Positions 37 to 25,095 of a DNA stretch of 25,998 bases are shown here, one piece after another. Under the pieces are notes generated by a model that saw only the letters and a program-made list of their open reading frames with translations, had not been told where the DNA came from and searched no databases. Position numbers and translations under genes: made by a program. The stretch lies in the IMG/VR virus record IMGVR_UViG_3300050508_000500; one strand, given 5' to 3'. This stretch comes from an uncultured virus (IMG/VR IMGVR_UViG_3300050508_000500). Lineage: Duplodnaviria; Heunggongvirae; Uroviricota; Caudoviricetes. Each line of letters opens with the position of its first letter. Within the stretch, counting starts at the first letter, position 1.

Positions 37-1583
37 GTGTCACGCTTCCGCATCCGGCGTATCGTGCCATGCTGCCGCTCTGGGCGATGCTGCGCGACGG
101 CTACCTGGGCGAAGCCGCCGTCAAGTCGGCACAGCCCCTCGATGCCGTCCGCCGCAGTACGTCCACAGCGCGCAATGGGACGGCGTATCTGCCACGCCCA
201 GCGGGGATGCGCCGCGATGAACAGTACGCCGCGTATCGGGATCGCCCCGCGTGGACGAGTGCCACAGAACACGCCGTGCATGGGATTACCGGCTCGGTAT
301 TCCGCCACGAGCCGCAACTCGTAGGGCCTGCTGCCTTAGAGCCGCAACTGGCCGACATTACGCAGACCGGCATTTCGCTGCGCATGTTCTGTGAAGAGGC
401 GGTGCGTGAGACCTTACTCATGGGGCGCTTCGGCATCCTGGTCGACTTCCCGACCGGTGACCTCACGCCCGATGGTCAGTTGCTCCCGCCGCCGCCGCAG
501 AGTCGCCCGTACTGGGTGGCGTACCAGGCCGAGGAGATTATTAACTGGCGCACGATGCAGCGGGGGGGCGATACGATCCTGTCGCTCGTGGTGCTGCGGG
601 AATGTGTGCAGGTCCCACAAGGCCCGTGGGGGACGCCCGACTTCTTTGTGGTCAAAGACCAGATTCAGTACCGCGTGCTGCGCTTGAATGAACGGGGGCT
701 CTACGAGGTGAGCTTGTGGCTGGAAGATCCGATTGGCCAGCGTACCAATGCCCAGGCCGCAACGCTCCAGCGGGTGTGGATGCCGACCCGCCAGGGGCAA
801 CCGCTCGACTTCCTCCCGTTCTGCTTCATGGCGCCGTTTTCGCTCGAGCCGACGCCCGAGAAGTCGCTCCTCGAAGGCTTAGTCCAAAGGAACTTTTTGA
901 ACTGGCGCCACAGCGCGGACTACGAGCATGCCTTACACTTGACCGCCATGCCGCAGTTCTACATTGCCGCCAACATGGAAGCGCCCCCGGAGCTGTACGT
1001 GGGGGCCAGCTCGGCCCTCTTCCTGCCCGATAATCAAGCCAAGGTGGGGATCGTCGAGTTTCACGGGCAGGGCCTCCAGCCGCACGAGAACGCCCTCAAA
1101 GCCGATCTGCAAATGATGGCCGCGATGGGCGCGCGGCTCCTCGAAGGTCCACCGGAGACCCAGGAAACGGCCACGGGTGTGCAGTGGCGCATGGCGGGCA
1201 GCGATAGCCCCGTGCAGAGCCTCGTGAGCAGCGTCAGTCAAGGGCTCACGTGGGCACTGCAAGTGCACGCGTGGTGGCAGGGCCTCACTGAAAATGTGGA
1301 TGATCCGTCCGTGCATGTGGTCCTCAACAAGGACCTCGTATCGAATGTGATGCAACCGCAGATGCTCCTGGCCTTGATGCAAGCGTTGCTCAACGGTACT
1401 ATTTCGTACGAAACGTTCTATTTCTGTTTACAACGTGGGGAGATTGCAAGGCCACTTGTGCCTGTAGAGGAAGAACAGGCGCTGATTGAAGACGAGCAAG
1501 CCCAACGGCCGCTCGCCATGCTGCCTCCAGGACCAGGAACCCCACCACCGGGACGCAATGGGACGACGCGGCAGGTGGCTTAG
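33..1583 (+). CDS. Phage portal protein (DUF4055-like)
   Basis: 516 aa; YLPRP..Y.AY..R start, 'GRFGILVDFP', 'RPYWVAYQAEEIINWR', 'LSLVVLRE', 'SADYEHALHLTAMP', 'GARLL', 'GTISYET' are typical of this portal family; first gene of head module. Confidence 0.9.
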   Translation: MSVTLPHPAYRAMLPLWAMLRDGYLGEAAVKSAQPLDAVRRSTSTARNGTAYLPRPAGMRRDEQYAAYRDRPAWTSATEHAVHGITGSVFRHEPQLVGPAALEPQLADITQTGISLRMFCEEAVRETLLMGRFGILVDFPTGDLTPDGQLLPPPPQSRPYWVAYQAEEIINWRTMQRGGDTILSLVVLRECVQVPQGPWGTPDFFVVKDQIQYRVLRLNERGLYEVSLWLEDPIGQRTNAQAATLQRVWMPTRQGQPLDFLPFCFMAPFSLEPTPEKSLLEGLVQRNFLNWRHSADYEHALHLTAMPQFYIAANMEAPPELYVGASSALFLPDNQAKVGIVEFHGQGLQPHENALKADLQMMAAMGARLLEGPPETQETATGVQWRMAGSDSPVQSLVSSVSQGLTWALQVHAWWQGLTENVDDPSVHVVLNKDLVSNVMQPQMLLALMQALLNGTISYETFYFCLQRGEIARPLVPVEEEQALIEDEQAQRPLAMLPPGPGTPPPGRNGTTRQVA

Positions 1584-5488: not shown

Positions 5489-5708
5489 TGCGCTCGTGTG
5501 GGAACGACTTGAACTGCATGGCGTGACCGAAGAGCACCTGCGCATGCTGGCGTGTGCGCTGGAGCTGCAAAAGAATGGCTCCCTCGCCTGGCACTTCGCG
5601 CACGGGTATCTCTCGCAATGTGATCTGCGGCTCGTGATGCCCTCAAAAAGCTATGAGTTGTCACGGATCAGCGACGCGGTGCTGGACGGCGCAAGCGTGG
5701 TCCGCTAG
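5481..5708 (+). CDS. Hypothetical protein (YezD/DUF2292-like pattern possible)
   Basis: ATG 5481 after GGAGGT; helix then 'GSLAWHFAHGYL' beta-hairpin pattern. Confidence 0.55.
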   Translation: MLDALVWERLELHGVTEEHLRMLACALELQKNGSLAWHFAHGYLSQCDLRLVMPSKSYELSRISDAVLDGASVVR

Positions 5709-23100: not shown

Positions 23101-24155
23101 TAGCCAGCGCCCGGACACTCGCGCGACGGCTGACGGCAGCGGTCCTGGGGGCGAGCCAGACGCCCACGGCCACCGCCAGCATGGGTGCCGTGCGCTCCCT
23201 CACGGCGACGCTGGCGGCAACGAGTACGACCCCGGCCAGTGCCCGCTCCCTGGCACGGCGCCTGAGTACGAACCTCGCTCTCGCCAGTACGACGCCTGCG
23301 GTTGCGCGCACGCTGACCAGACGCCTCAGTACAGTGCTCATTGCCGCGAGCGTCACGCCCCCCGCCACGGCGGCACAGGCCGGGGTGCGTTCCCTCACGG
23401 CGAGTCTCCTTGGGGCGAGTACGACGCCCGCCAGTGCGCGGCAGATGGGGCGTCGCCTCACGGCACAAGTTGCCCCGAGTAGTGCCACGCCTGCCACGGT
23501 GCTCCGGCAGATCCGGGCGTTGCGGGTGATCGCCGTGGGGACCAGTACCACCCCGGCCGCGATCCTGGCCAAGCGTGTGACCTTCCAGGCGGGTCTCCTC
23601 GGGACCAGTACGACGCCGGTGAGTGCCCGGCAACTGGTGCGACGGCTCCAGGCGTTCCTCAGTGGCCCGAGCCAGACGCCCCTTGCCCAGGCCGTGAGCC
23701 TCCGGCGTTTGACGGCCTTCCTCGCCGCGGCGAGTCTCACGCCGCCGACGAGTGCGGCCTACGTCCGCTTCCTCCAGGCAACGCTCGCCCTCGCCAGTCA
23801 GACGCCGCTCGCGTCCGCCTCTCTACTACGCGATCTGGCCGCAGCTTTCCTCGCCGTGAGTCTCACGCCGCTGAGTACTCAGACGAGCCTGCGGGCGCTC
23901 CTCAGTGCGCTCAGCGGGAGTAGTGCGACGCCGAATGCGCGGGCCACGATGCTCGACATGCCCCTGCTCCTCATGGGCACAGGCGCCCTGCTGCAACGGA
24001 CGGGGCAAGCGACGACCGCCACGTTGACGCGCAGCCAGACGGCAGGCACGCTCATGCGTACCAGCCCCGGTACCAGCCCAACATTGCGGCGCGGGGACGG
24101 GCAGGCCGGCACTCTCCGGCGTACCGCGTCCCCGCGCGATCCTGATTTGAGGTGA
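20139..24155 (+). CDS. Large tail fibre / receptor-binding protein: LamG-like domain, three collar/needle modules, long repeat region
   Basis: 'GQLDDCRLYNRALSASEV' (LamG); 'W.LCDG..G.PD.R..F.KGA' with many HxH motifs; ~20-aa RRL..L.G.STTP repeats. Confidence 0.8.
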   Translation: MPLHLLGPRSLDYGQPIAWEAPLNRGLTAWWLLLPKRVGGRRLVDLAKRLPATLTGMSASTATSGWGASTRPGGWAALRFDGTDDHLAVPGTLATYITPTAATVSLWVLPLGTAPSISSVYFGQGIVAENAGYFGLYRTSLTGDDRLWAFNWTGSDTHIGVPYTVGAWTYLTLTHDSSTLSIYKNGVLGGSIASTATGSVSGTVWLGRGYNNIYLPGQLDDCRLYNRALSASEVRRLYRDSCLRYPQELRWRAPLHVVPVGISVPVDPDAIATGITVLWSGSVASIPAGWTRATALDGRYPRGAAASANGGATGGSATHTHPTTTHDHTTAHTHTTPNTTGTGGTPSTRDTGTTNPPMVHTHGSNPAAPNPVTTLTTEAPSTDTVNHEPAYVETLFLMSQGVTHGFPASTIGLWADSAGAPANWSLCDGAGGRPDYRGTFLKGAPAAGAPGGTGGGATTHAHTIASHSHGGTYSHTHPGVTSSQRTEALTTGSIGGATANVATATHTHALTFSTPAPVVTAQTDSTTSASIPEPPYWLLAYLQNVSGALQKTSGIIALWLGTVATIPTDWVLCDGTNSTPDLRSLFVKGASTVAAIGGSGGSTASHGHTATGHTHAIAAHVHTVTGGVGASEARTVGATNAPPDTHTHTWPNTGSTAPTSGATTPTLDSVADMLPPYVTVLFLQYQPPAPPGAHFAANLVGTSTTPTSARTVTRRLSAAALGSSTTPAATATLLTTRRLTAALAGTSTTPVSARTLTRRLTGQLAGASTTPVAARTLTRRLTTTLAGASTTPAAARPTTVRRLTGVLPGSSATPTSAQTSVRRLQAALPAASTTPSATALVLTLRRLTAVLSGQSTTPASARTVTRRLAAGLPVTSTTSTSAVTVLHRFAAALPGASTTPPAQASVTAVRSLSAALSGTSTTPTTARTVMRRLTTAVLGASTTSASQTTFTRRLQATLSGASTTPAATATMGTLRHLVAQLAPSSLTLASARTLARRLTAAVLGASQTPTATASMGAVRSLTATLAATSTTPASARSLARRLSTNLALASTTPAVARTLTRRLSTVLIAASVTPPATAAQAGVRSLTASLLGASTTPASARQMGRRLTAQVAPSSATPATVLRQIRALRVIAVGTSTTPAAILAKRVTFQAGLLGTSTTPVSARQLVRRLQAFLSGPSQTPLAQAVSLRRLTAFLAAASLTPPTSAAYVRFLQATLALASQTPLASASLLRDLAAAFLAVSLTPLSTQTSLRALLSALSGSSATPNARATMLDMPLLLMGTGALLQRTGQATTATLTRSQTAGTLMRTSPGTSPTLRRGDGQAGTLRRTASPRDPDLR
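22220..23950 (+). repeat. Coding tandem repeat, about 60-66 nt unit, roughly 25-30 copies
   Basis: Recurring AGTAC(C/G)AC(C/G)CC core encoding STTP. Confidence 0.8.
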
Positions 24156-24158
24156 TCT

Positions 24159-24551
24159 ATGCCGACGATTCCCTTGTTGTCCACGACCTTGCTCGAAGCG
24201 ACGACTGGCCTCCTTACGTTTCTGCTCGTCGATAGTGTGGGCGAAGGCGTGCCGGTGTCCATGCTCACGACCCTGACGCTCACGTACTATGATGTGATTA
24301 GCGGCACGATCGTCAATAGCCGTAATGCCCAGAATGTCCTGAATGCCAATGATGTGAGTGTGACGACGGCTGGCTCTCCTGCCGTCACGACCATCGAATG
24401 GCAGATTCAACCTGCTGATACGGCGATGGTGGATCCCGAGTTGGCGCTGGAGTACCGCGTCGCGCAATTTCGCTGGACCTGGGATAGCGGGACGCGCCAT
24501 GACGCCTTTCAGGTCCAGTTTGCGGTGGAAAATATGGCCTTTGTTGTCTGA
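24159..24551 (+). CDS. Tail-associated beta-sandwich protein (BppU N-terminal-like)
   Basis: 'LTF.LVD..G..V', 'W..QPADT', 'FRWTW'; GAGGTG RBS. Confidence 0.6.
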   Translation: MPTIPLLSTTLLEATTGLLTFLLVDSVGEGVPVSMLTTLTLTYYDVISGTIVNSRNAQNVLNANDVSVTTAGSPAVTTIEWQIQPADTAMVDPELALEYRVAQFRWTWDSGTRHDAFQVQFAVENMAFVV

Positions 24552-24637
24552 GATGAGCACTACTAAAAAAGTCGTGTGATTTGTATGGGGGTATGCTAGG
24601 CTCACGATATCTTTTGAGAGGCAGTGCTGAGAGGGTG

Positions 24638-24730
24638 GCCTTCCCCACGTGTGTGGGGATGACCCGATACATGGCTTGACGCTGTGTCTGTACGTGTGCT
24701 GTTCCCCACGATGGTGGGGGGAGTGAATCC
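24638..24730 (+). CRISPR. Type I-E-like CRISPR mini-array, one spacer, no cas genes in window
   Basis: 29-nt repeat GCCTTCCCCACGTGTGTGGGGATGACCCG (24638-24666), 32-nt spacer (24667-24698), degenerate repeat CTGTTCCCCACGATGGTGGGG... from 24699. Confidence 0.8.
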
Positions 24731-24772
24731 TACGGTAGTCACTGGTCGCCTGGCATCCTCCAGGTAACACAT

Positions 24773-24826
24773 ACCGCCGCAGAGTTTCGAAGCAACCGGT
24801 TTGCTTCGTCGCTGTCGGCGGTTTTG
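24773..24826 (+). terminator. Long hairpin with T-tract downstream of the mini-array
   Basis: ACCGCCG..CGAAGCAA-CCGGT-TTGCTTCG..CGGCGGT-TTT. Confidence 0.6.
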
Positions 24827-24846
24827 TCGTTGCTGGAGGTCACGTC

Positions 24847-25095
24847 ATGGACGATGCCCCCTACCGCTCCGAATCCTGGTCCGGTCTCATCCAATTCCGC
24901 TGTCCCGCCTGTGGCTACGATACGCTGCTACAAGCGCGGATGGATGCCCACATTGCGCACTGTGTCCGCTTGCAGGCAGCCATCGCGGCGGGAGAACCCC
25001 CATCGCCGTTTCCGCCTCCTGAGCCCGCTCCGGACGACGAACCCGCCCCCGATGACGAGCCCGAACCGGCCCAGCCGACGCCTGCGGGGGCCTAG
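24847..25095 (+). CDS. Small zinc-finger-like protein with acidic Pro-rich tail
   Basis: CPAC...H...C; EPAPDD twice; GGAGGT RBS. Confidence 0.65.
   Translation: MDDAPYRSESWSGLIQFRCPACGYDTLLQARMDAHIAHCVRLQAAIAAGEPPSPFPPPEPAPDDEPAPDDEPEPAQPTPAGA

Follow-up and report, generated by a model that had tools for sequence, protein, structure and literature searches.

A type I-E mini-CRISPR array in the tail region of an uncultured tailed phage, at an intergenic site that hosts alternating CRISPR units

The question raised by this locus is why an uncultured tailed phage from soil should carry, among its tail genes, a single CRISPR spacer flanked by two repeats of type I-E appearance. The window analysed here is a stretch of 25,998 nucleotides, which corresponds to bases 19801-45798, read on the minus strand, of a 64,380-bp IMG/VR virus record (61% G+C) and differs from that record at 2 of 25,998 bases. 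PHROG matches on the plus strand of the window include portal, scaffold, major head, adaptor, connector and tail proteins. The mini-array site is a 295-nt gap between a 130-aa ORF (24159-24551), which comes after a 1338-aa tail-like protein, and the gene for an 82-aa protein (24847-25095), which precedes a major-tail-like protein gene. The 82-aa protein has an acidic tail rich in proline in addition to a CxxC...HxxxC motif; it is conserved in all of the relatives described below, and it matched no Pfam or PHROG family. An antisense ORF (23826-24770) that overlaps genes of the plus strand was taken to be spurious.

The first inspection of this DNA had reported no cas genes in the vicinity, and that observation is upheld. 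The Cas6e family (PF08798) has no match in the 64,380-bp record at E<=1, and only phage functions were seen, with no cas genes, when 38 ORFs outside the window were compared with Pfam and 21 window ORFs with PHROGs. The record is labelled a provirus, yet no integrase or host gene is present among the 38 ORFs scanned outside the window. An identical locus is found in a 70,484-bp metagenome contig (L100), but at a position that does not allow contig and record to be superimposed over their full length; this suggests a circularly permuted or larger genome.

The features of the site, several of which are predictions, are as follows.

24574-24602, plus strand: putative promoter, assigned from conservation and position only, with a -35-like GTGTGA (24574-24579), a 17-nt spacer and an extended -10 element TGc-TAGGCT (24594-24602)
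24603-24637, plus strand: short leader between the -10 element and the first repeat, homologous to the leader of the I-E unit in the relative L110
24638-24666, plus strand: first repeat (R1), a full 29-nt type I-E repeat, GCCTTCCCCACGTGTGTGGGGATGACCCG, recognized by sequence, fold and pattern search
24659-24666, plus strand: predicted 8-nt handle AUGACCCG, produced by a presumed Cas6e cut in R1 after G24658
24667-24698, plus strand: 32-nt spacer ATACATGGCTTGACGCTGTGTCTGTACGTGTG, read from the sequence
24699-24727, plus strand: second repeat (R2), in whose first 21 nt (24699-24719) the hairpin CCCCAC-GATG-GTGGGG is preserved; these 21 nt constitute the predicted 3' handle
24659-24719, plus strand: predicted mature crRNA, 8 + 32 + 21 = 61 nt, from the geometry of the unit
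24733-24826, plus strand: conserved leader RNA, not part of the array, containing the invariant block GGTAGTCACTGGTCGCC, a hairpin that covaries, GGTAACACATACCGCCG and a long terminator hairpin (24773-24822) with a T run
24834-25095, plus strand: ribosome-binding site CTGGAGG and the gene for the 82-aa CxxC...HxxxC protein (CDS 24847-25095), the first gene after the leader RNA

The original prediction had described a 29-nt repeat with a stem and an 8-nt handle, a 32-nt spacer and a second, stem-keeping repeat, and this anatomy is reproduced when the sequence is re-read. R1 forms a 7-bp stem, TCCCCAC/GTGGGGA (24642-24648 / 24653-24659), around the tetraloop GTGT, and its 3' end is the 8-nt tail ATGACCCG. 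The hairpin cores of R1 and R2 each fold at about -13 kcal/mol and lie 61 nt apart, a distance equal to the period of a real array, and the crRNA length of 61 nt proposed earlier (8 + 32 + 21) is consistent with that spacing. The position of the Cas6e cut is a prediction based on the E. coli and Thermus Cas6e enzymes. When the pattern TTCCCCACNNNNGTGGGGATGNNCCG was searched with up to three mismatches (<=3), a single match was found in the window, none was found in 100 shuffles (0/100), and there was one in the 64,380-bp record.

Type I-E repeats are about 29 nt long. A GC-rich stem of 7 bp encloses a tetraloop, and the 3' end is an 8-nt tail that terminates in CCG and forms the 5' handle of the crRNA. 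R1 has each of these features, from its length and 7-bp stem to the tetraloop and the 8-nt tail ending in CCG, and the 32-nt spacer and the 61-nt period are those of real I-E arrays. A strict pattern that includes the window's own tail (TTCCCCACN4GTGGGGATGACCCG) detected 21 loci in a species-genome collection, including arrays of 42, 53, 29, 13 and 8 repeats from records of Verrucomicrobiota (Haloferula, Luteolibacter and others). Agreement with R1 is 23-26 of 29 positions throughout the 21 loci, the best cellular repeat reaching 26/29, and the Verrucomicrobiota array repeats, GCTTTCCCCACnnnnGTGGGGATGACCCG, agree at 24-25/29, with differences only at position 3 and in the loop. In 4 of the 5 array-bearing Verrucomicrobiota genomes checked, Cas6e (PF08798) is encoded about 3-4 kb from the array. 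This proximity of strict-pattern arrays to Cas6e genes argues that the window repeat is, on sequence grounds, a member of a real I-E family. The type I-E assignment made at first sight is thereby substantiated, the repeat family being found in cellular arrays of up to 53 repeats beside Cas6e, and the comparison with cellular arrays that had been proposed as a check does yield I-E arrays, in Verrucomicrobiota and at 24-25/29. Repeat similarity points to Verrucomicrobiota as a candidate host group. However, a search with the capsid protein detected no relative among 401 Verrucomicrobiota genomes, and the same was true of the 5 genomes with arrays; the nearest cultured phages, with capsids only about 54% identical, have mixed hosts.

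Relatives were found with the tail-like protein (51-100% identity), and a search with the invariant motif GGTAGTCACTGGTCGCC detected 17 viral loci, of which 16 are true relatives of the intergenic region and one (L108) is unrelated. Many of the 16 are duplicates from related samples; seven versions can be distinguished, and a repeat unit is present in six. At the locus level, a CRISPR-repeat unit occupies this site in 15 of the 16 relatives. The window's own I-E unit is found in two (L102 and L114), and another two (L110 and L116) have a different I-E unit, in which both repeats, CTGTTCCCCGCG(C/T)GCGCGGGGATGAACCG, are intact and the 32-nt spacer is another one. A 37-nt repeat with GGGATTGAAAC at its end characterizes the units of 11 of 16, in four versions: L107 has four copies of the repeat GTCTCAAAGCCGTAACAGCCCTGGAAGGGATTGAAAC with spacers of 23-37 nt, and ten further loci, comprising three versions, have truncated copies of the 37-nt repeat behind a TAGAGT-type -10 element. 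The remaining relative, L113 (1/16), has no repeat unit.

The window and L110 were compared by segments. Identity is 83% at the end of the upstream ORF, 75% in the putative promoter and 82% in the conserved RNA; the array leaders share 25 matches over 35 and 37 nt, and the R1 sequences agree at 21/29 positions. The two spacers, by contrast, are unrelated (local-alignment shuffle p=0.31). The stem is CCCCGC/GCGGGG in L110 and L116 and CCCCAC/GTGGGG in the window, a compensatory change that is present in both repeats, and such paired changes are what selection for a Cas6e-cleavable hairpin would predict. The earlier suggestion that the parts needed for one crRNA are maintained by selection thus gains support from the sister unit, which is homologous and occupies the same site but has compensated stems and a spacer of unrelated sequence. 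In contigs from the same four metagenome runs, the flanks of the site are covered by diverged relatives in which 24552-24732 is replaced by 165 or 197 other letters; rival versions therefore co-occur. In the sister phage L074, the DNA that separates the tail-like gene from the 130-aa ORF contains, at about 5590-5660, TGATATAAT followed by a repeat-like unit, an 8-bp hairpin, CGCTTGCC/GGCAGGCG, and then AGGATTGAAAC. This is another candidate promoter-driven solitary repeat, which may resemble type I-C repeats.

The second repeat of the window unit is less regular than the first. Its first 21 nt match R1 at 15/21 positions, whereas its last 8 nt (GGAGTGAA) match at 0/8 and are not a handle. The first 21 nt are nearer the L110 repeat (18/21, the R2 sequences of the two phages being compared) than the window's own R1 (15/21), and the hairpin is followed by GTGAA, a possible remnant of ATGAA(CCG). 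These features suggest truncation of R2, or a deletion behind its hairpin, in place of slow or random decay. The original prediction was that R2 had retained its stem and had decayed thereafter; retention of the stem is seen, whereas decay describes the remainder less well than truncation or deletion.

The sequences that flank the unit have a history of their own. A -10-like TGCTAGNCT with a -35-like GTGT(C/G)A 17 nt upstream is conserved in the relatives L110 and L113, and the corresponding sequence in L103 is TGCTAGCCT. In the window, TGCTAGGCT is found at 24594-24602, although this 9-mer alone is not rare (it is present in 36 of 100 shuffles), and a sigma-70 consensus scan did not call the promoter at 24574-24602. 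Downstream, a terminator-like hairpin with a T run was called at 24806-24822. The leader RNA that it ends, about 95 nt in length, is common to all 16 relatives, including L113, which is without any repeat unit, and folds far better than shuffled sequences (z-score -4.33). No Rfam family was matched at the gathering threshold, and the sub-threshold matches in 24540-24860 were two chance matches only, to Chlorobi-1 (E=0.63) and sX7 (E=9.5). In the consensus fold, the leader segment CCTCCAGG pairs with the ribosome-binding site CTGGAGG of the 82-aa gene, and the leader RNA therefore looks, in this model, like a cis-acting leader of that downstream gene. It is possibly an attenuator or a translational switch for the tail genes.

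Since both the -10-like TGCTAGNCT and the leader are also present in the array-less L113, the I-E unit is, as judged from this alignment of relatives, inserted between a putative promoter and a leader that were both there before it. The idea of a stand-alone transcription unit, with which the analysis began, must be given up on this point: the putative promoter (TGCTAGNCT) and the terminator belong to the conserved leader RNA and are kept in relatives without the I-E array.

These observations bear on an alternative in which the unit would be a mere relic or passenger, derived by recombination from a host I-E array and now decaying without a function for the phage. R2 does lack its 8-nt tail, no target was found in the searches, and all copies of the exact unit come from near-identical phages (L068, L069 and L100), so there is no independent conservation of that unit. 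However, the lost part is the only one that is dispensable in a unit with a single guide, the two hairpins are preserved and show paired changes relative to the sister unit, and the unit lies directly after a conserved putative promoter. Furthermore, 15 of 16 relatives keep some repeat unit at the site, and the same layout recurs in L012, another phage contig, where a full repeat and a 32-nt spacer are followed by a handle-less hairpin. A functionless relic is on balance an unlikely explanation.

A possible function in conflict between phages is suggested by one of the 37-nt units, that of a sister phage. The L107 array (about 940-1200, minus strand) consists of four 37-nt repeats, and its last "spacer" is native promoter DNA. 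Its spacer 2 matches the ribosome-binding site and start codon of the 82-aa gene homologue in three sister contigs at 30/33 positions, with GTT directly 5' of the match. The same spacer agrees at 28/33 positions with other sisters, and at 24/33 with L107's own copy and with the window. The 37-nt repeat, the spacers of about 35 nt and a GTN/GTH PAM accord with the values given for type I-D in a review (PMC10212523), and the L107-type repeat may be classed as I-D-like. Taken at face value, the spacer match means that the unit of one sister phage (L107), of a CRISPR type other than the window's I-E, is one that targets other phages. That the array is aimed at the start of the 82-aa gene suggests that this gene matters to these phages. 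The tail of the 37-nt repeat, searched in 401 Verrucomicrobiota genomes, gave four single matches with two mismatches and no arrays.

The window itself contains a repeat of this second type at another position. At 2437-2473, in the intergenic region 2432-2497, a -10-like TGGGTATGGT is followed by the truncated 3' end of a 37-nt repeat, TCCCTGGAAGGGATTGAAAC (repeat at 2454-2473). The repeat is followed directly by native DNA, leading into the start of an ORF at 2498-2752. The arrangement resembles a solitary repeat of the I-D-like type under the control of a promoter. In the sister record G006, the same gap is about 540 nt long and contains other small ORFs and no such repeat.

For the window's own spacer, a search of viral databases had been recommended, and it did not reveal a protospacer in IMG/VR, in JGI metagenomes or by blastn against phages. 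The full-length spacer, with N at positions 6, 12, 18, 24 and 30, was found in IMG/VR and the JGI metagenomes only at the same locus in near-identical phages (L002, L003 and L100), and sub-patterns of 22-23 nt (positions 1-22, 11-32 and 7-29) were likewise found in IMG/VR only at the same locus in near-identical phages. These collection scans used exact patterns, by which targets with scattered mismatches would be missed, so the negative result is a weak one. There were no blastn matches to phages, and matches to plasmids were limited to 20-nt chance matches at E=9. Within the record and its relatives, a search allowing up to 11 mismatches (<=11) found only the spacer itself, and no match was found, with up to three further mismatches (<=3), in the whole records of 5 relatives and in 10 genomes with a similar repeat. 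The L110 I-E spacer, searched in IMG/VR, also detected only itself.

Absence of the target from viral collections would be expected if the guide were directed at the host, and two alternatives of this kind have to be considered. In the first, the crRNA would act against a host chromosomal gene, a resident prophage or a defence island, in order to silence or destroy it; phage-encoded CRISPR systems directed at host defence elements are described in a review (PMC11656645). However, the 10 genomes with a similar repeat, which may not be those of the host, contain no match. With a full 32-nt match, the chromosome would moreover be degraded by Cas3, at a cost to the phage if it is temperate. Among the ORFs scanned, none was recognized as an integrase gene. 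We regard a guide against the host chromosome as very improbable.

In the second, the unit would be an RNA anti-CRISPR, either a decoy that soaks up Cas6e and Cascade subunits, similar to a Racr, or a Cracr guide that pairs partly with a host cas promoter and tightens its repression. Solitary type I-E repeats and mini-arrays from phages have been shown to inhibit I-E systems. The I-E RNA anti-CRISPRs RacrIE1 and RacrIE2 are described in one study, in which placement directly behind a promoter, as predicted here, is also described for such RNAs (PMC10651486). An I-E Cracr array from a Salmonella prophage is reported in another, where the tested I-E guides of 24 and 21 nt pair partially with the casA promoter (10.1101/2024.10.29.618823). 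The lack of a target in virus collections is again what a host-directed guide would lead one to expect, and the same phage has a promoter-proximal lone repeat of a second type at 2454-2473.

However, the window unit has a canonical 32-nt guide between two cleavable hairpins, and this favours a normal, interference-competent crRNA, and a normal rather than an aberrant Cascade. The guide is also longer, at 32 nt, than the 24 and 21 nt given for the tested I-E Cracr guides (10.1101/2024.10.29.618823). Furthermore, when the spacer was compared with 281,489 bases around the arrays and cas genes of candidate hosts, the true host being perhaps absent from among them, its best match was 20/32, and ten shuffled spacers reached 20-21. 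An RNA anti-CRISPR is a possibility to be taken seriously, although we consider it rather doubtful.

The explanation that we prefer, with a confidence that is about evenly balanced, is that the unit is a virus-borne type I-E mini-array that serves as a one-guide gene by which host Cascade is turned on rival elements. The unit lies just downstream of the conserved putative promoter of the tail-region leader RNA, and would probably be transcribed as the 5' part of that leader. Cleavage by host Cas6e behind each hairpin would yield a crRNA of 61 nt, composed of an 8-nt handle, a 32-nt guide and a 21-nt hairpin. This crRNA would be loaded into host Cascade and, with Cas3, would direct an attack on DNA that bears the protospacer, the likeliest target being a competing phage or another mobile element in the same host. 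The anatomy of the unit, its repeat family, the absence of cas genes, the exchange of such units at the site among sister phages and the targeting of other phages by one sister unit are shown by the present data, whereas we infer transcription, processing, loading and target. The first interpretation is therefore supported in part, and the three functions suggested with it, attack on a competitor, repression of a gene and titration of Cascade, are not told apart by these data. The preferred reading agrees with what is reported for the mini-arrays of archaeal viruses, which occupy the same position in sister viruses with different spacers, have targets near the array, and are accompanied by a mutated target copy in the carrier itself (PMC6858448; reviewed in PMC11656645).

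A broader proposal, which is offered tentatively and with clearly less confidence than the preceding one, is that the intergenic site is a swap-slot for guide cassettes in an arms race among co-occurring sister phages. I-E and I-D-like units would replace one another at the head of the leader, each phage arming the effectors of the shared host against its relatives. The I-E unit would have been pared down to a minimal gene for a single crRNA, and the window phage would have one unit of each type, if the lone repeat at 2454-2473 is counted.

Units of this general form are not confined to the relatives of the window phage. A looser pattern, TCCCCACN4GTGGGGATGNNCCG, detected 64 viral loci, ranging from lone repeats to arrays of 48 repeats with a 61-nt period. 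After the removal of duplicates, 57 distinct viral loci remain; 29 have a single full repeat, and in 9 of these 29 a second hairpin is found downstream. The second hairpin is at 32 nt in four loci (L012, L020, which is a relative of the window, L053 and L059), at about 20-21 nt and without a handle in four more (L026, L028, which is the same as L056, L044 and L066), and at 11 nt in one (L007). In L028 and L044, a terminator-like hairpin comes after the second hairpin. The short guides of L026, L028, L044 and L066 resemble the published I-E Cracr guides (10.1101/2024.10.29.618823).

The lineage of the window phage provides a natural series at one site, with no unit in one version, two I-E units with compensatory stems, and four versions of the second type. 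Its versions co-occur in the same metagenome samples. Such a series could show how guides are acquired, trimmed and exchanged, and whether two host CRISPR types are exploited at once. The trimmed layout, with a full repeat, a guide and a hairpin-only repeat, recurs in L012 and amounts to the minimum for one I-E crRNA. If the guide is instead aimed at a host cas promoter, the Cracr strategy would be extended to a new host group. To our knowledge, virus-borne mini-arrays have been shown to work in only a few systems. The experimental validation considered here concerns archaeal viruses (PMC6858448).

Among known systems, the chromosomal I-E arrays of Verrucomicrobiota share their repeat length, stem, 8-nt tail and 61-nt period with the window unit. 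They differ from it in being long, cellular and beside cas operons, whereas the window has one guide in a phage, with a truncated last repeat.

The two classes of RNA anti-CRISPR are similar in other respects. Racr elements, described by Camara-Wilpert et al. 2023 (PMC10651486), are also repeat mimics located in phages without cas genes, behind a promoter (in the window, a putative one), and include I-E examples. However, they are single repeats that give rise to aberrant sub-complexes, whereas the window unit has two hairpins, a full-length guide and normal crRNA geometry. The SRUFinder rule (PMC10651486) calls for no second repeat within about 100 bp, and the window unit falls outside it, with a second hairpin repeat 32 nt downstream. 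The Cracr described by Liu et al. (10.1101/2024.10.29.618823) is a phage I-E repeat-spacer-repeat that is processed by host Cas6e and reprograms Cascade, and resembles the window unit in this arrangement, although processing is here a prediction. Its guides are 21-24 nt long and pair partially with the casA promoter, whereas the window guide has 32 nt and no cas-promoter match near candidate hosts.

The closest likeness is to the mini-arrays of viruses, which, according to Medvedeva et al. 2019 (PMC6858448) and the review (PMC11656645), lack cas genes, have one spacer enclosed by two repeats, and are intergenic and promoter-proximal; the promoter of the window unit is a putative one. As in those viruses (PMC6858448), sister phages have units at the same site with other spacers, and the L107 spacer is directed against a gene adjacent to the array in co-occurring relatives, its own copy being mutated. 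The published examples are from archaeal portogloboviruses and have Sulfolobales repeats, whereas the present one is from a bacterial tailed phage and is of type I-E. The window unit further differs from them (PMC6858448) in that its second repeat is reduced to a hairpin and that its site alternates between two CRISPR types.

Repeats identical or nearly identical to those of the host are typical of mini-arrays; here the best cellular repeat matches at 26/29. Their spacers are directed against a related virus or mobile element; the window spacer is without a match in the collections searched, whereas in the L107 unit, of another CRISPR type, such a match is seen at 30/33. The window unit belongs to a known kind of element, the virus-borne mini-CRISPR array, and the hot spot in which it lies, alternating between two CRISPR types, is unusually informative.
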